The notes below the pieces were generated by a model. It saw only the letters and a list, made by a program, of their open reading frames with translations, had not been told where the DNA came from and ran no database searches. From Candidatus Enterousia sp. (lineage in GTDB: Bacteria; Pseudomonadota; Alphaproteobacteria; Rs-D84), in assembly GCA_045587125.1 (NCBI GenBank), contig JAZNBN010000023.1:879-64878 (forward strand): 64,000 nucleotides of DNA, written 5' to 3'. The position numbers and the translations under genes were made by a program. Within the stretch, counting starts at the first letter, position 1. Each line of letters starts with the position of its first letter. Of this stretch, positions 17,538 to 42,757 are shown one piece after another.

Positions 17538-17643
17538 AAAATAAATTAGAATGATTTAGATACACGCAGCGCCGGCAACGTAGTGTACAAGTGTTACATA
17601 AGTTGCCGGTACCGTGTGTAGATGAATTATTATAATTTATTTT
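17538..17643 (+). repeat. ~106-bp structured palindromic element, type A (GCCGGCAAC stem)
   Basis: AAAATAAATTAGAATGATTTAGAT-stem-CGTAGTGTACAA..TTACAT(A/G)AG-stem'-GATGAATTATTATAATTTATTTT; fills the gap between two convergent stop codons. Confidence 0.9.
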
Positions 17644-19237
17644 ATTCAACCAATTTCCAACCGGTAAACGTATACCCTGGTTTAACTGGGTCGGACGGCA
17701 ATGTAACCGCACCGTCATAGTAGCACATATTCTGGATATGCGCGCCACCATTATCCGGATTCCAATCAATATTGATTGTGTTTGAATTACAGTATGATGC
17801 TGTTACAGGTTTATCTAAATAGGCAAAACTGTAATCATCACCAAATGCAACACCGCTTAAAATCGTATCACTTCCAAATAAATCACTACCTCCGTCCAAC
17901 GCCCAGAAATTTGTAACCCATGGCGAATTTGTTTCAACAAAATTCAATGAAGAAAACATTGCTTTGATAAGTGCTCCCATTTTTTCTTGGTCTGAAACAT
18001 CGTCATTATTATATATAGAAATTAACGATAACATTTCTGGACTTATACTATCAACATGATTATATGAGGCAACCTCTGTAAAAATAATATTAAATAATTC
18101 TGACTTCAAATCTTGTTCACTATTTATTTCTCCATTTTTTGTGCGTTTCATTACCTCTATAACCTTATTCACATTCTTAGTGGATAAATTTTTACGCAAT
18201 TCCTGTTCAGCCTGTGAAACAAAAGCATCAGCATCATCTGCTTTCAACATACTATATATCTCGGAAACATCTTCTAAATAATTCAATAAAATTTTCGCAT
18301 CTTGACTATAAATATTCTCATCAGATTCCATAAATTTCATTAACAATTCAGTAGCAGGCGTGGGCATACCAATCTTGACTAACCTTAGCCATTTATTATC
18401 CCCAGTAATCGTTCTTTGAAAATCTGCATTTGGCAAATATTTTGGATAAACGGTTACAGTTTGCTGATCTGGATGTGGATATCCATCACCCGTCAATACC
18501 CCAGGCGTATTTTCATCATATGAATTTATTGACATTTCAAACAAATACCTCCCCGCATACAAAGCCTGACCAGGTTCAAGCAATTCACAATCATTAAAAC
18601 CATTATCAAACATCCCAAAAAAACCATTCCATTCTTGTCCATGCAATGAACACTCTAAACTCATGTAGATCTCAAATTCTGACGCAGCAGCAACAGGTTC
18701 AAAAGCAACACTTTCTTTACTATACCCCGTGTCGCACCCAAAATCTGCGATTGGACAAACACTTGGGTATGCATTACAGGTGCCGCCAGCAAACTGTTTG
18801 CCGGTGGTTTTGAATTCACTGTGCGTGCAATTATTGGAATGTGGTGGACATTCTACGTTTTTACTGCACGCCAATTCGCATCCCATATAACATTCGTTTT
18901 CACCCACTGCACCCGCGTCTGATGTATAATCTGTTGGACATGTGTTTACACCGTTGTTTTCAGATTCAACAGTAAATTTACCACCCGGACAATATGACCC
19001 AACCGGACATTCGGTACATTTTAATGTTCCATCTGAATTTAATAAATATTGACCGGCACCGCATTCATATTCATTTAACGTCCATGTTGCGATTGTATTT
19101 GCAGTCGCATCGTTTTCGAACACACCAAGCACATCAACCGTACACGTGCCCGCACCGCCGGTAATTATCCCATCCGCAGCGAACACAGGCGACATTAAAC
19201 CCATTACCAACATTGACGATAAAAAATATTTTTTCAT
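17642..19237 (-). CDS. Cys-rich variable surface protein, paralog 1, with C-terminal InlB-B/Flg_new-like repeat
   Basis: Signal peptide; CPVGSYCPGG motifs; C-terminal TLPSDPVKPGYTFTGW; N- and C-termini shared with 38452-39756. Confidence 0.85.
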   Translation of the reverse strand: MKKYFLSSMLVMGLMSPVFAADGIITGGAGTCTVDVLGVFENDATANTIATWTLNEYECGAGQYLLNSDGTLKCTECPVGSYCPGGKFTVESENNGVNTCPTDYTSDAGAVGENECYMGCELACSKNVECPPHSNNCTHSEFKTTGKQFAGGTCNAYPSVCPIADFGCDTGYSKESVAFEPVAAASEFEIYMSLECSLHGQEWNGFFGMFDNGFNDCELLEPGQALYAGRYLFEMSINSYDENTPGVLTGDGYPHPDQQTVTVYPKYLPNADFQRTITGDNKWLRLVKIGMPTPATELLMKFMESDENIYSQDAKILLNYLEDVSEIYSMLKADDADAFVSQAEQELRKNLSTKNVNKVIEVMKRTKNGEINSEQDLKSELFNIIFTEVASYNHVDSISPEMLSLISIYNNDDVSDQEKMGALIKAMFSSLNFVETNSPWVTNFWALDGGSDLFGSDTILSGVAFGDDYSFAYLDKPVTASYCNSNTINIDWNPDNGGAHIQNMCYYDGAVTLPSDPVKPGYTFTGWKLVE

Positions 19238-19257: not shown

Positions 19258-19305
19258 TAAAAAATAATCACCTTAATGGCACGACATGCCATTAAGGTGA
19301 TTATT
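19258..19305 (-). terminator. Attenuator-type intrinsic terminator in the 5' leader of paralog 1
   Basis: Perfect 19-bp stem AATAATCACCTTAATGGCA-(5 nt)-TGCCATTAAGGTGATTATT, followed by a U-run on the minus strand about 25 nt before the ATG. Confidence 0.85.
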
Positions 19306-19328
19306 CATAAACGCAAACTGCGTTTGCG

Positions 19329-19388
19329 TTAAAATTTGTTTTTAACTCTCTCTCTCTCTCTCTCTAGATTTCTGCGGAATTTTGCCAT
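19329..19388 (-). CDS. Putative leader peptide MAKFRRNLERERERVKNKF containing (AG)10
   Basis: GAAGGA RBS then ATG at 19388; conserved with 39924-39968; too short for the ORF track. Confidence 0.7.
   Translation of the reverse strand: MAKFRRNLERERERVKNKF
19346..19365. repeat. (CT)10 dinucleotide microsatellite
   Basis: Read directly from the sequence. Confidence 0.95.
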
Positions 19389-38347: not shown

Positions 38348-38453
38348 AAAATGAATTAGAATGATTTAGATGCACGTGGTGCCGGCAACGTAGTGTACAA
38401 ATGTTACATGAGTTGCCGGTACCGCGGGCAGATAGATTATTATAATTTATTTT
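38348..38453 (+). repeat. Structured palindromic element, type A
   Basis: Homologous to 17538-17643 and in the same position relative to the paralog's stop codon. Confidence 0.9.
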
Positions 38454-39756
38454 ACTCAACCAACTTCCAACCGGTAAATGTGTAACCCGGTTTAACTGGG
38501 TCTGGGGTTGGTAATGTAACCACACCATCATACGTACACATATTTTTGATATGATCACCACCATTATCCGGATTCCAATCAATATTGATTGTGTTGGCTT
38601 CACAAACACCACCTTGTGACACGCCCAATGCACCATACATAACTGCTCGGAAGGCACGATAGTGTACTATACCAAGCCGCAGGCTGTACACACAGTACTC
38701 TGAGCACTCGGACGCACAACTGTCCGCCGATCCGAAGTCGCTGTTGAAGACCCAGGGGGCGGATGTAACCATTTCTTTCGCGCCACCGGCTGCTTGGTAA
38801 CCATCCATTTGACAATAACAATACTGACCGGCGCTGGACGTACTATAATTCTTGTCTGACGATTCGCTGAACGTTACAAAATATTTTGCAAATGTTTCAA
38901 AATTCGCTTCATTTGTCAACCCATCTGTCGAACCAGACATAAAATGTTCAAAGTAATCCATTATAACATTTGCCTTGGCTTGACCATATTGGTTTCTTAA
39001 TTCTTGGCGAAGTTCTTCCATGGTTTTACTACCGTTCGTTACTGCCTCAAGATTATTCATTGCGTATTCAATGGCAGGGTCCGTAGTCGCCTGACAACTC
39101 GCTTTGCCGTATACAACACCATCGGCAAATCCAACAGCATACGTACCGGGACCACTTAATTCACTACTTAGGTCTGCACCAAAATTACTGCCGTCTGGGG
39201 CTATATATGTATAATTTCCATTACTATATTTGATGTAATCAAGCGGTATTAATGGTGTTTGTTCAACCAATGTTATTTCACCATTTATATGATAACCTTT
39301 GTCACAGGCCGTGGCGTAACATGCGTCCGCCCCGTCGCCAAAGTAATCGTTACCGCCGACCGCCGTGGCGTGGGCTATGTTTGCCGTGGCAACTGTACAT
39401 GCGGTGTAGCACTGATTCTGCGCGCCGGCACCGGCATCAGAATTTGGATATCCCGTTGGACATTGGGCGATACTGTTGTCCGCAGTTTCAACCGTATACC
39501 CACCACCAACGCAATATGAGCCCGCGGGGCATGTGGTTTCTGTAACCGATGTGTCCGTTACGTTCAGGTATTCACCCGGGGCCAATGTATAATCTATCAA
39601 ATCCCATGTCGCAATTGTGTTTGCGGTCGCGTCATTTTCATACACACCCAATACGTCAACGGTACATGTATTCGCACTGGTTATTATTTTGTCGGCACCA
39701 AATGCAGGTGCAATAAACGTTCCCATTAATGCGGTGGTTAAAAAATATTTTTTCAT
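38452..39756 (-). CDS. Cys-rich variable surface protein, paralog 2, with C-terminal InlB-B/Flg_new-like repeat
   Basis: MKKYFL signal, TCTVDVLGV.ENDATANTIATW, CPAGSYCVGG, C-terminal DPVKPGYTFTGWKLVE identical to paralog 1. Confidence 0.85.
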   Translation of the reverse strand: MKKYFLTTALMGTFIAPAFGADKIITSANTCTVDVLGVYENDATANTIATWDLIDYTLAPGEYLNVTDTSVTETTCPAGSYCVGGGYTVETADNSIAQCPTGYPNSDAGAGAQNQCYTACTVATANIAHATAVGGNDYFGDGADACYATACDKGYHINGEITLVEQTPLIPLDYIKYSNGNYTYIAPDGSNFGADLSSELSGPGTYAVGFADGVVYGKASCQATTDPAIEYAMNNLEAVTNGSKTMEELRQELRNQYGQAKANVIMDYFEHFMSGSTDGLTNEANFETFAKYFVTFSESSDKNYSTSSAGQYCYCQMDGYQAAGGAKEMVTSAPWVFNSDFGSADSCASECSEYCVYSLRLGIVHYRAFRAVMYGALGVSQGGVCEANTINIDWNPDNGGDHIKNMCTYDGVVTLPTPDPVKPGYTFTGWKLVE

Positions 39757-39841
39757 ATCTCCGTCCCTTCTTTTGTTTTTTGTTGTTTATCTCTTCTTTG
39801 CCACTATCCCTATTCCTGCCTTTGCAGAAGTGACAAGATTG

Positions 39842-39890
39842 AAAAAAAATAATCACCTTAATGGCACAATATGCCATTAAGGTGATTATT
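39842..39890 (-). terminator. Attenuator-type intrinsic terminator in the 5' leader of paralog 2
   Basis: Same 19-bp stem as 19263-19305 with a different 5-nt loop; U8 run on the minus strand. Confidence 0.85.
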
Positions 39891-39923
39891 CAACAACGCA
39901 AACATAGTTTGCGTTAAATGTTT

Positions 39924-39968
39924 TTAACTCTCTCTCTCTCTCTCTAGATTTCTGCGGAATTTTATCAT
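39924..39968 (-). CDS. Putative leader peptide MIKFRRNLERERES containing (AG)9
   Basis: ATG at 39968 in the same position as in copy 1; (CT)9 at 39928-39945; weaker RBS than copy 1. Confidence 0.65.
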   Translation of the reverse strand: MIKFRRNLERERES

Positions 39969-40102
39969 TTTTTGCACTTTTCCCCTGTTATCGGCATTTT
40001 ATCATAATCACCACTTTATTAAAAGCAGAAAATTAAAGATAATGGTATAGATACGCACAAACCCGACATCGTTGGTCGTACAGAAGTATATAATCCTTAA
40101 TC

Positions 40103-40208
40103 AAAATAAATTAGAATGATTTAGATAAAAGTAAAACGGGAATCGTAGTGTACAAACGCTACATGAGATTCCCGTTTTGCTTTTAGATGAATTATTATAA
40201 TTTATTTT
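40103..40208 (+). repeat. Structured palindromic element, type B
   Basis: Near-identical to 19454-19549 and overlaps the secretin stop codon; a degenerate half-copy lies at about 40028-40092. Confidence 0.9.
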
Positions 40209-41835
40209 AGTTTAGAGGGGCACCCCAATTCTGCTGAATCGCTCTCTCCGTATCCATTGGGCTGACCAAAACCTGTGGCGTCAAGATTACAACCAATACT
40301 TCACGTGTTGATGACGATTCGCGTGAACCAGACAAAGCGATAAAGTCAGGATCACCCAAACCATAACGTTTATCTTCGTTTGTTTGTTTTTCAAAACCTG
40401 ATACAACCAACATTTGACCAGATTCCATAATTACTTCTTGCATGAAACTACGTTCTTCTACCTCTGGCAATTGCAGTGTTACTTCACCAATTGTCTGGGT
40501 TGACATACGCAACAATTCACGAACAGACATACGGAACAGTAATAAAATCTTGCCGTTATCTAATACATTTGGCAACAACTGCATTGTAAATCCTGTTTCC
40601 AAATCGTCTTGGTCAACTGTACTGGATTCAACAGTTGTAAAGTTACGTGATTCAAAACGTTTAATATACCCTGTGGTACGTGTATTACTTACCGGTGCAA
40701 CACGATTACTGCGTGTTGTAACACCAACATTTGTAACCAATGAAACTTTACCCTGCTTTGCCAAAGATTCAATCAAGGCCGCACTGCCCGCCGCCCCAGA
40801 CAAAGAACCATTCATAATTTGATCTTGGGTATATGCACCTTCTACTGTTGTACCGCCTTCCTGATGGGTTGCACCTGTCAATGCAGATACTGCATTTGAT
40901 AATACTGCAATGTTCATTGAACTGGCCTCGGTCGATGCAAGATTATTCTTTGGATTTGCGACAATATTCAAACCAGACGTTGAATTAATAGCCGCCGCCA
41001 AATTCAAACCAAATGCCGAATCATTTGAAATTGTTACCTGTAATACCTTGACATCAATTGTAATCAATTGCGACAAACGTTTATTTTGACGTTCAATATA
41101 ATCACCCACACGTGCCAACACAGATGGAGATGCCGTTACAGTAATTGTTCCCAAACTGCGAGAAACTGTAAAGTCTGCATTTTCACTTTTACCAATAATT
41201 GATGCGATTGCACTTTCAACTTCGTCCCATTCCTTTAATGTAGATTGCAAAGAAACTTCATTTGCATCATCTGTTGACACAGCGGTTTGATATGCAACCT
41301 CGGTCCCCAAGGCGAACAAAGTAAATGTTTTTGTTTCTGTTTCATAGAAAACGATTGAATTTTTATCATAATACCACAATAAATCTAAATCTGTTGCAAC
41401 CTGGGACAACAAACCAGACAATTTGCCAGTATATGCAACATTAACCGTCTTTCTTAATTTATCCTGTGCAACCTGACTATCGATTTTAACAGGAATACCT
41501 GTTGCGGAATAAATATCATTTGCCAACACCTGCAAAGACACAGGTTCATTTAATAATATAGTAACCCCCGTATCAGATTCAAATTTAGACGGCAAATTGT
41601 TACGATGTTCCAACACCACTGATTTATTTCCCAACCATACACCTTCGGACATAGAAACGGTATCACCACTGGCCACCTTGGCACGTGGATTTTTAGCCAT
41701 TTCGAATGCATCATATGCATTTATAAAATCTGTATCAACAGATGCTGCAACCTTGGCAGACTGTTCTTTAGCACATCCGACCAATGCACCAACCGCCAAA
41801 GTACACAGAACAATTTTTCTTATTGATTTTAACAT
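40207..41835 (-). CDS. Type IVb pilus secretin lipoprotein (PilN/BfpB/TcpC-like)
   Basis: LVGC lipobox, Y.G.LSGLL.QVA, GTITVTASP, secretin domain (ESLAKQGKVS, TGFTM..LP, SGQMLVVSGFE, LVVILTP). Confidence 0.85.
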   Translation of the reverse strand: MLKSIRKIVLCTLAVGALVGCAKEQSAKVAASVDTDFINAYDAFEMAKNPRAKVASGDTVSMSEGVWLGNKSVVLEHRNNLPSKFESDTGVTILLNEPVSLQVLANDIYSATGIPVKIDSQVAQDKLRKTVNVAYTGKLSGLLSQVATDLDLLWYYDKNSIVFYETETKTFTLFALGTEVAYQTAVSTDDANEVSLQSTLKEWDEVESAIASIIGKSENADFTVSRSLGTITVTASPSVLARVGDYIERQNKRLSQLITIDVKVLQVTISNDSAFGLNLAAAINSTSGLNIVANPKNNLASTEASSMNIAVLSNAVSALTGATHQEGGTTVEGAYTQDQIMNGSLSGAAGSAALIESLAKQGKVSLVTNVGVTTRSNRVAPVSNTRTTGYIKRFESRNFTTVESSTVDQDDLETGFTMQLLPNVLDNGKILLLFRMSVRELLRMSTQTIGEVTLQLPEVEERSFMQEVIMESGQMLVVSGFEKQTNEDKRYGLGDPDFIALSGSRESSSTREVLVVILTPQVLVSPMDTERAIQQNWGAPLN

Positions 41836-41869
41836 ATCTACATTCTCCTAAGTATGACCTTGTATAAAA

Positions 41870-42757
41870 TTATTCTTCTGTGGTTGAAACAACCAAAACT
41901 CTATTTCCCTTATAAAACTTAGCATATGGGATTGGTGTTGCACGTCCAAAGTTACGTACCAACGCAGATGCAACATCTACAAAACGTCCCTTGAATACCG
42001 CACTGGCTTCTATTGGATATTCACGAGATGTTGCCCAAACTAAATCCCAACCTTCTTTATCACACCAAGACTGTAAAACTTCACGCAAGGTCTGACCATT
42101 TGCAACAACCCAAGAACGAACTTGATCCATAACAGGCGCCGCTGGTTCTGCATCAACCGCAACTGCGATTTCTGTTTCTTCTTCGGTAACAATTGTTTCT
42201 TCCTCTTCAACATTCATACCCATTTTAACAGCAAACGCATCATAAGAATCTGCATACTTGCCACATGTTTTACGTCCACTGCGTGAAACAGCCAAAACAT
42301 TTGCACCATCATCTTCTAAAACTTCACGATGTAACAATGGCATTTCCGCAGAAGAATTACATTCATCATCAAACCCCGCAGGAATTTGATTACCATGCAA
42401 CATATTTGCACCACCAGACCAACCTGCAAAATCACCAAAATTTGCAACATCAAAATCATTTTGCACAACCATATCCGAACCAATTTTGGAAACAACACGA
42501 ATATTATCCTGTTGTTTTGTTTTGGAACACGCACCTGTTGCGCAACCAATTACAACGTCTGCATCAGACCCAGCCAACGGCCACGCCGGAACATACGCCT
42601 GGGCAGCACCATTTGAATACTGATACCCGGCATCATCAAACGTCCTTGCCTGTTCATAAAAAACCTCTGATGTAACAACCTGAGGTAACATATCTGCTGC
42701 AAAACAATAGCCAGCAGCAGTTGCAAACATAGCACAAATCAATATCTTGCGGAACAT
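41870..42757 (-). CDS. TcpQ-domain (PilL-like) pilus assembly protein
   Basis: C-terminal W....GQTLREVLQSWC..EGWDLVW....YPIEA...F.G.F..V; directly upstream of the secretin. Confidence 0.75.
   Translation of the reverse strand: MFRKILICAMFATAAGYCFAADMLPQVVTSEVFYEQARTFDDAGYQYSNGAAQAYVPAWPLAGSDADVVIGCATGACSKTKQQDNIRVVSKIGSDMVVQNDFDVANFGDFAGWSGGANMLHGNQIPAGFDDECNSSAEMPLLHREVLEDDGANVLAVSRSGRKTCGKYADSYDAFAVKMGMNVEEEETIVTEEETEIAVAVDAEPAAPVMDQVRSWVVANGQTLREVLQSWCDKEGWDLVWATSREYPIEASAVFKGRFVDVASALVRNFGRATPIPYAKFYKGNRVLVVSTTEE

Follow-up and report, generated by a model that had tools for sequence, protein, structure and literature searches.

A candidate phase-variable transcription attenuator ahead of secreted cysteine-rich protein genes in Candidatus Enterousia sp.

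The repeat-bearing element and its sixteen copies

The stretch analyzed here, referred to as the window, comprises 64,000 nucleotides (nt) of Candidatus Enterousia sp. (assembly GCA_045587125.1, contig JAZNBN010000023.1, positions 879 to 64,878 of the forward strand) and belongs to a 26-contig genome that totals 1,101,867 bases and is 96.75% complete. Enterousia is placed in the uncultured alphaproteobacterial order Rs-D84, and the majority of its genomes are smaller than 1 Mb (PMC12306168). On the minus strand of the window, at 39756-40005, lies an element designated copy 2, in which an extended -10 box is followed by a leader open reading frame (ORF) with an (AG)9 repeat, a hairpin of 9 base pairs (bp), an intrinsic terminator and the gene for a secreted cysteine-rich protein. 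The leader peptide follows the pattern MIKFRRNL(ER)n, its Glu-Arg repeats being encoded by (AG)n. A second such element, copy 1, precedes a paralogous gene elsewhere in the window. The coordinates of both are collected in Table 1. Because the secretin gene upstream of copy 2 is itself closed by a hairpin and T-run terminator, the switch requires a promoter of its own. The Rfam scan of the window yielded no family that matches the switch, two transfer RNAs being the only matches. Recoding of TGA was ruled out as a complication in reading the frames, since 55 of 559 long ORFs end in TGA with a median extension of 5 codons to the following stop, marking TGA as a genuine stop codon.

Table 1. Features of the two switch copies and their surroundings in the window (n, number of AG units)
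Feature	Position	Strand	Remark
Hairpin and T-run ending the upstream secretin gene (stop 40207)	40133..40178	-	Repeated intergenic terminator element
Copy 2, predicted extended -10 promoter box TGATAAAAT	39996..40004	-	Conserved TGATA[TA]AAT box
Copy 2, leader ORF at n = 9, MIKFRRNLERERES + TAA	39924..39968	-	ATG 39968, stop TAA 39926-39924
Copy 2, (AG)9 simple sequence repeat	39928..39945	-	Variable part of the switch
Copy 2, TAA ending the leader when n mod 3 = 1	39914..39916	-	Overlaps the foot of hairpin 1
Copy 2, hairpin 1, AACGCAAAC-TAT-GTTTGCGTT	39895..39915	-	9 bp, -8.5 kcal/mol
Copy 2, TAA ending the long leader frame (n mod 3 = 2)	39886..39888	-	Within the 5' foot of the terminator stem
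Copy 2, intrinsic terminator	39842..39891	-	20-21 bp stem, 3-5 nt loop, 8-T run, -28.9 kcal/mol, z = -10
Copy 2, short palindromic insertion TTGTCAC...GTGGCAA between terminator and gene	39798..39836	-	Missing from most copies
Copy 2, ribosome-binding site and ATG of the 434-residue ORF	ATG 39756	-	
Copy 2, regulated gene	38452..39756	-	434-residue secreted protein, signal peptide, 16 Cys
Copy 1, leader ORF, MAKFRRNLERERERVKNKF + TAA (short frame)	19329..19388	-	(AG)10 at 19346-19365
Copy 1, hairpin 1 and terminator	19262..19330	-	Hairpin 1 at 19310-19330, terminator at 19262-19306, then the paralogous gene at 17642-19237

The repeat is far from what the base composition of the window would produce, an (AG)6 run having appeared in 0 of 100 window shuffles. 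A census of the whole genome for (AG)n runs of five or more units returned exactly 16 tracts, and all of them sit in the same module, each preceded by the same leader. The number of AG units differs widely among them (13, 8, 7, 9, 8, 10, 9, 12, 7, 10, 9, 6, 9, 6, 10 and 9; range 6-13), so that n mod 3 equals 0 in eight copies, 1 in six and 2 in two. Given that each of the 16 paralogs has a tract of its own, each could switch independently, and the differing repeat numbers fit the proposal of the first-pass annotation that the paralogs could be toggled separately. The TGATA[TA]AAT box, a predicted promoter, precedes the leader ATG by 27-34 nt in 15 of the 16 copies; an AAGG core lies 4-14 nt ahead of that ATG in 12; and the distance from ATG to tract is 23 nt in every copy. 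No tract-less "locked" copies or orphan terminators were encountered in the genome, where the ten matches to the 11-mer preceding the tract proved to be unrelated sequence.

The position of the leader stop codon depends on the repeat class. When n mod 3 = 0, the leader TAA follows one base past the tract (+1) in 16/16 copies, and when n mod 3 = 1, it stands one base before hairpin 1 (+11/14 after the tract), again in 16/16. The remaining class, n mod 3 = 2, gives a long frame that ends at +36 to +42 after the tract, with the terminator foot at +36 to +41: the stop is a TAA two bases inside the 5' foot in 14 copies and a TGA two bases before it in two (C6:43174 and C10:41977), both of which have one extra nucleotide (a 1-nt insertion) in the hairpin 1 loop. 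In copy 2 the long frame would read LKTFNANYVCVVE, and the remaining two frames terminate at AGT TAA and GTT AAA AAC ATT TAA. The design outlasts non-triplet insertions and deletions because TTGAATAA provides stops in two frames.

Sufficient downstream DNA for gene assignment was available for 13 copies, the other three reaching a contig edge after 55, 63 and 145 nt, and in each of the 13 the gene that follows encodes a paralog from a single family of secreted proteins. In seven of the 13, the gene ATG is located 104-108 nt after the tract and only about 20 nt after the T-run, in a stretch filled by the ribosome-binding site, which leaves no room for a separate promoter. Whichever of the three frames is read, the leader ends ahead of the gene, which starts from an ATG of its own and encodes its own signal peptide.

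Conserved RNA structure and the proposed attenuation mechanism

Pairwise alignment of copies 1 and 2 indicates where the module tolerates change. The segment from tract to terminator is shorter in copy 2 by exactly 3 nt, located between the tract and hairpin 1; both stems are identical; and the loops read GCA versus TAT and TGTCG versus TATTG on the minus strand, that is, TGC/ATA and CGACA/CAATA on the plus strand. Two further substitutions both fall within the 4-nt linker between the hairpins. Differing columns thus number 0/56 in the stems and 7/12 in loop and linker (Fisher p = 8e-7). The first-pass annotation had described copy 2 in these terms, namely a leader that stops directly behind (AG)9, a long frame open to the TAA at 39888-39886 beside two frames with early stops, an exact 3-nt loss relative to copy 1, and unchanged stems with altered loops, and every one of these descriptions was borne out on inspection of the letters. 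Its further suggestion of selection on RNA structure is likewise upheld, both by the avoidance of stems by substitutions and by the covariation described below.

A structural alignment of the 13 complete copies, 11 of which are of one type (type A), extends this picture. Standard pairs are formed in 98.3% of pair cells, and sliding the register reduces the paired fraction to 28-49%. Four terminator pairs show compensatory changes on both sides, and the covariation score was reached by 0 of 500 shuffles. Among the 11 type-A copies, varying columns number 4/56 in the stems and 11/13 in loop and linker (p = 5e-8). In 2/13 copies the terminator is of a second variant, whose stem differs in sequence, and a third copy, truncated by its contig, shows the 5' arm of this variant. 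Both minimum free energy (MFE) and centroid folds consist of two independent hairpins, and no competing antiterminator pairing between hairpin 1 and the terminator is present in either.

To relate stop position to terminator formation, we modeled a ribosome halted with the stop codon in its A site and its leading edge at +12. With the ribosome masking the RNA at either short-frame stop, all 21 terminator pairs remain; with the ribosome at the long-frame stop, only a 5-bp apical hairpin is left, detached from the U-tract. The masking model agrees with attenuator geometry, which we regard as a consistency check.

With anatomy, copy number, conservation of structure, tract polymorphism and stop positions directly established, we consider it probable that the element is a phase-variable transcription attenuator placed before a gene for a secreted cysteine-rich surface protein. 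Under this interpretation, the promoter would give rise to a short transcript containing the leader ORF, the small hairpin and the strong intrinsic terminator, and slipped-strand gain or loss of AG units would shift the reading frame of the leader. At n mod 3 = 0 or 1, the ribosome would halt 33 or 23 nt ahead of the terminator, the terminator would form and the gene would be OFF, a class to which both copy 2 (n = 9) and copy 1 (n = 10) would belong; the OFF state of copy 2 is thus a prediction from its letters, as it was in the first-pass annotation. At n mod 3 = 2, the ribosome would pass hairpin 1 and come to rest on the terminator's 5' foot; the hairpin adjoining the U-tract could then not form, and the polymerase would read into the gene (ON). 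Leader translation, ribosome-polymerase coupling and the identity of the ON state are the parts of this scheme that we infer. For hairpin 1, a role as a polymerase pause or synchronizing element is suggested.

The proteins behind the switch belong to a family with a recognizable layout: a signal peptide, a conserved cysteine-rich N-terminal region some 150 residues long, a hypervariable central part and a conserved C-terminal Listeria-Bacteroides repeat, the last corresponding to Pfam Flg_new at 27.2 bits against a cut-off of 27. A tblastn search of the genome detected 30 N-terminal domains that align over 119 residues or more with an identity of at least 50%, pointing to about 30 paralogs, and relatives with up to 63% protein identity occur in "MAG: Candidatus Enterousia sp." records. 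For the copy 2 protein the NCBIfam search returned no family, and for the copy 1 paralog a single repeat match that fell below the cutoff. A protein atlas search gave a 0.83 match to an unnamed Flg_new cluster and nothing else. The AlphaFold2 model built from a 9-row alignment reached a mean predicted local distance difference test (pLDDT) score of 44.4, too poor for fold comparison.

Family paralogs lacking the AG switch bear a second type of leader, found in 13 of 16 looked at in this genome (L087-L099, e.g., C11:17130-17480 and C10:125310-125665) and in 12/12 in a "Ca. Enterousia sp." metagenome-assembled genome (MAG; L061-L077, upstream of position 2001). It is a structured RNA of about 215 nt closed by an intrinsic terminator, for which RNAalifold on 14 copies proposed 48 pairs, of which 14 show compensatory changes on both sides. 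Its features include a long-range helix whose five central pairs vary from paralog to paralog and a GGTCAGGAGG segment able to pair either upstream or with the 5' arm of the terminator, in an antiterminator-like manner. In most copies a short ORF begins 7-13 nt ahead of the first arm. The IIb and IIc core gave a full-length but sub-threshold match to the Rfam family sRNA-Xcc1 (RF02221; 28.8-38.6 bits versus 53). We regard this leader as a candidate new cis-regulatory RNA.

Several other features surround the switch copies. Directly upstream of copy 2, window positions 40207-42757 on the minus strand encode a secretin (Pfam PF00263) and a TcpQ-like protein (PF10671), which may form part of a pilus or secretion apparatus. 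The intergenic hairpin-terminator element that closes the secretin gene, AAAACGGGAATC...GATTCCCGTTTT with conserved flanks, occurs 12 times in the genome and four times in the window (40133-40178, ~38394, ~19606 and ~19500); it often follows family genes and precedes switch promoters, and it is kept upstream of copy 1. Palindromic elements resembling miniature inverted-repeat transposable elements, with termini TTGTCATTGCGAG / CTCGCAATGACAA (56 terminus matches in the genome) and a second element type TGTCATCCTGGGGCTTG, are inserted between terminator and gene in 6/13 switch copies (copy 2 at 39798-39836, C10:42121, the C16:56857 region and others). On the plus strand, hairpin 1 of copy 2 (39895-39915) is followed by AAATGTTTTT and was flagged as terminator-like, and it could halt antisense transcription from the gene side.

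Spread across the genus and competing explanations

The repeat and its module are not confined to one genome. (AG)7 or longer is present in 22 of 201 sampled genomes of the genus. In a sample of 151 genomes from the order, CT(AG)7 was found in 12, which belong to 3 of 22 genera, and the reversed control pattern matched in none. The same architecture, built on other stem sequences, recurs in at least eight further species of the genus. We tabulated 20 modules, comprising five variants from this genome, 11 from nine other species of the genus and four from metagenome contigs. In 16 of these, exactly two frames end early and one ends at the foot of, inside or beyond the terminator, with terminators of -19.5 to -32.3 kcal/mol; depending on the species, the long frame falls in n class 2, 0 or 1. 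Hairpin 1 is present in most of the 20, again with different stems. In G068, the terminator is cut by the contig end. At least four unrelated gene families follow the modules: the cysteine-rich family, a 204-residue cysteine-free secreted protein, small cysteine-containing secreted proteins, and a 236-residue protein with no evident signal peptide.

Tract length also differs between close relatives. A metagenome contig (L083) and the corresponding locus of a sister species (L002) are 96.6% identical over 2,283 nt and have n = 14 versus 10. For copy 2 itself, a run search gave 24 sequencing runs, all DNA or of unknown type and none RNA; contigs from four of them (four studies) end at 39918-39954 and are uninformative on n. 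Across 29 modules with a single long frame (16 from this genome and 13 others, including L035 with its terminator cut and L013 with its start cut), the long frame is the current state in four (binomial p = 0.016 versus one third). This bias against the long frame gives an indirect hint as to which state is expressed, from a comparison that was made post hoc on modules that are not independent.

In relatives within the genus and in another genus of the same family, the motif M-x-x-x-R-R-x-L-(ER)n forms the true N-terminus of long secreted proteins. This shared N-terminus suggests, at the level of sequence, that the leader peptide was derived from the N-terminus of such an in-frame (AG)n protein. 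Ten classical loci with the tract inside the ORF were examined, nine of them with an identifiable start, and the assembled n was in frame for the long ORF in none of the nine. Classical in-ORF loci, encoding long secreted proteins, are L042, L043, L047, L051, L052, L003, L009, L080, L082 and L111; L111, with n = 21, comes from the other genus and stands outside the ten that were counted. Separately, four loci in other species of the genus (L031, L054, L036 and L004) have (AG)6-8 inside a restriction-modification gene, and in L031 the tract separates two Methylase_S (specificity) domains within a fused N6-methylase-specificity protein, an arrangement that looks like phase-variable methyltransferase specificity.

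A number of observations weigh against the attenuator interpretation. At copy 2, a strict two-hexamer promoter scan found no -35/-10 pair, the leader ATG lacks the AAGG ribosome-binding core, as in 4/16 copies, and a 39-nt palindromic insertion within the 171-nt spacer from tract to gene ATG could in principle hold a promoter. On these three counts, copy 2 may be a weaker member of the set. For n mod 3 = 1, the stop is separated from the terminator by 23 nt, a shorter distance than the minimum of 28 nt given for streptococcal isolates with low expression (PMC3894217), and hairpin 1 has no explained role in the attenuator model. At one leader with (AG)6, C22:38950 (L027), hairpin 1 and the long-frame TAA are kept and the terminator is replaced, in the 145 nt available before the contig end, by unrelated acidic-coding sequence; this is either a recombined locus or an assembly join. 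Among the tabulated modules, a deletion in L006 (species G012) leaves 8 nt between tract and terminator so that all three frames reach the terminator, two frames reach it in L086, and G206 has no convincing terminator. L006, as a natural deletion variant, is predicted to be a locked-ON module.

The reading-frame layout calls for similar caution. Each spacer was shuffled 5,000 times with the terminator kept, and the observed layout recurred in 37-55% of the shuffled spacers, with some layout capable of switching in 77-87%, which also tells against the attenuator interpretation; the product of the fractions over eight sequence classes is 0.002, although these classes are related. Furthermore, a 2-nt insertion or deletion after the tract separates two related species and shifts the long frame to another class. 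Since non-triplet changes exist and shuffles often reproduce the layout, the layout is robust, and selection for it is not demonstrated; the 3-nt difference between copies 1 and 2 carries little weight alone. We have therefore dropped frame design as statistical proof of selection. The first-pass annotation had argued for selection on the reading frame as well as on RNA structure and had counted both toward an attenuator. The frame argument falls, and with it that half of the support, whereas the attenuator itself is sustained by the 16 copies, the covarying stems, the modules in other species and an experimental precedent in a streptococcus (PMC3894217). Its proposed comparison of all copies had the same mixed result, in that substitutions do avoid the stems, but not all insertions and deletions are triplets, as the 1-nt loop insertions in 2/16 copies illustrate.

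The existence of in-frame relatives raises the possibility that the leader is merely a relic, the detached N-terminal stub of an in-frame (AG)n gene, with a constitutively leaky terminator and neutral repeat variation. The use of M-x-x-x-R-R-x-L-(ER)n as a true N-terminus in long ORFs of relatives, the statistically ordinary frame layout and the absence of a good ribosome-binding site at copy 2 are all compatible with such a history. However, a neutral dinucleotide tract would be expected to decay, and the 16 copies retain the ATG, the 23-nt spacing, at least six repeat units and all three stop positions; the genome search gave no tract-less copy, and the design is kept in other species before at least four unrelated gene families. 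We consider a relic unlikely. Slightly less likely still is a switch in which leader translation acts through Rho-dependent polarity or messenger RNA decay instead of terminator occlusion. The early stops would leave 23-33 nt plus the rest of the 5' untranslated region (UTR) untranslated, and stochastic control by Rho-dependent termination is known for invertible switches (PMC12360218). Nevertheless, the untranslated stretch is short and A-rich (no specific search for a rut-like C-rich region was made), and a covarying 20-bp hairpin with an 8-T run stands exactly at the end of the long frame, C22:38950 apart.

Two further alternatives fare worse. Were the leader and terminator an independent small gene for a peptide or small RNA, the surface-protein gene would have a downstream promoter of its own, for which copy 2 and five other copies, with 170-460 nt from tract to gene and inserted palindromic elements, would offer space. 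This is improbable given that 7/13 copies have only the ribosome-binding site in the ~20 nt between T-run and ATG, and that what follows the module is in every case a secreted-protein gene with the orientation of the module. A reversed polarity, with the short frames ON and the long frame OFF because, for example, translation through hairpin 1 removes a protective or antiterminating structure, draws on the fact that the ON and OFF assignment is an inferred one and that hairpin 1 has no assigned role. It is the least probable of the alternatives, and very improbable in itself: in the MFE and centroid folds, hairpin 1 and the terminator do not pair with each other in any alternative way; the terminator is expected from folding to form in the absence of a ribosome; long corresponds to ON in the streptococcal precedent (PMC3894217); and fewer modules are in the long frame than in the short ones, just as the classical relatives are seldom in frame. 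The phase-variable attenuator thus remains the interpretation that we favor.

Comparison with known regulatory systems

Translation of a leader is a familiar means of controlling transcription termination. In pyrBI, the position of the leader ribosome, set by uridine triphosphate (UTP)-dependent pausing, decides whether the terminator forms. In the Escherichia coli trp operon, the corresponding signal is charged transfer RNA (PMC3894217). The trp system relies on a competing antiterminator hairpin, whereas none is predicted for the Enterousia element, in which the signal would be a heritable change of frame; an attenuator of the trp type was therefore ruled out on the MFE and centroid folds.

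Phase variation by dinucleotide repeats within ORFs is also known, with Helicobacter outer-membrane genes as examples. Such classical switches, a class that is also treated in PMC3894217, resemble the present one in having a similar tract near the 5' end of surface-protein genes and one productive frame in three. Here, in contrast, the tract lies outside the regulated ORF, with a terminator and a separate start codon with signal peptide in between, and in-ORF phase variation was ruled out because the leader ends before the gene in all three frames. A repeat switch acting on promoter spacing was ruled out as well, since the tract begins at least 50 nt downstream of the conserved -10 box. In Haemophilus influenzae hmw, a transcribed repeat in the 5'-UTR upstream of an adhesin gene acts, as proposed here, through RNA and not through promoter spacing (PMC12721329). 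There, however, the heptamer repeat forms one arm of a long hairpin that is cut by ribonuclease III (RNase III), giving graded expression, and neither a leader peptide nor terminator occlusion plays a part. E. coli fim and Clostridioides difficile flgB share stochastic ON/OFF control through premature termination in a 5' leader, which in those systems arises from recombinase-driven inversion that exposes a terminator or Rho site (PMC12360218) and here would arise from repeat slippage and translation.

If the proposed mechanism is correct, at least 16 switchable paralogs exist beside at least 13 under the second structured-RNA attenuator, together a sizeable share of a 1.1-Mb genome. This would point to heavy investment of reduced-genome symbionts in stochastic variation of surface proteins and would bear on their persistence in animal guts. 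To our knowledge, current predictors of repeat-based phase variation search ORFs and promoters only, and hence repeats in upstream ORFs combined with terminators should join the catalogues of phase-variable genes. More tentatively, and with the balance of our judgment somewhat against it, the module may be an independently evolved, portable cassette that arose from an in-frame (AG)n stub, has come to serve at least four families and provides combinatorial surface variation, with hairpin 1 as a pause or synchronizer and a three-position stop design.

A targeted literature search for repeat-controlled leader-peptide attenuation led only to a single species of streptococcus, covered by PMC3894217 and by a review of that bacterium. 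In the pil1 and pil3 loci of Streptococcus gallolyticus, GCAGA repeats in a leader peptide set the distance from leader stop to terminator, and long peptides lead to high pilus expression (Danne et al. 2014, PMC3894217). The two systems have in common a repeat within a leader ORF, a stem-loop terminator before structural genes, and a repeat number that sets the frame and thus the stop position; in pil1/pil3, a leader stop well upstream of the terminator gives low expression, and one at, within or beyond it gives high expression. Surface structures are controlled in the streptococcus, at two loci per genome, and would be controlled here as well. The Enterousia element has a promoter and an own-start leader ORF (both predicted), a non-triplet repeat in the leader, an intervening terminator and a class-dependent stop position, and thus shares every sequence-level feature of pil1/pil3, a likeness of design that is known here from sequence alone. 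The differences are also considerable: the repeat unit is AG and not GCAGA; the host is a reduced-genome Gram-negative alphaproteobacterium and not a Gram-positive coccus; there are 16 loci instead of two; one frame of three is long here, whereas both out-of-frame classes are long there; an additional conserved hairpin stands between tract and terminator; and secreted cysteine-rich proteins take the place of pili. The same logic built from different parts, 16-fold in one genome and genus-wide, suggests a general solution that has evolved repeatedly. Thus, the mechanism is one already known, and it is the host, the multiplicity and the spread throughout the genus that are the notable parts of this example.

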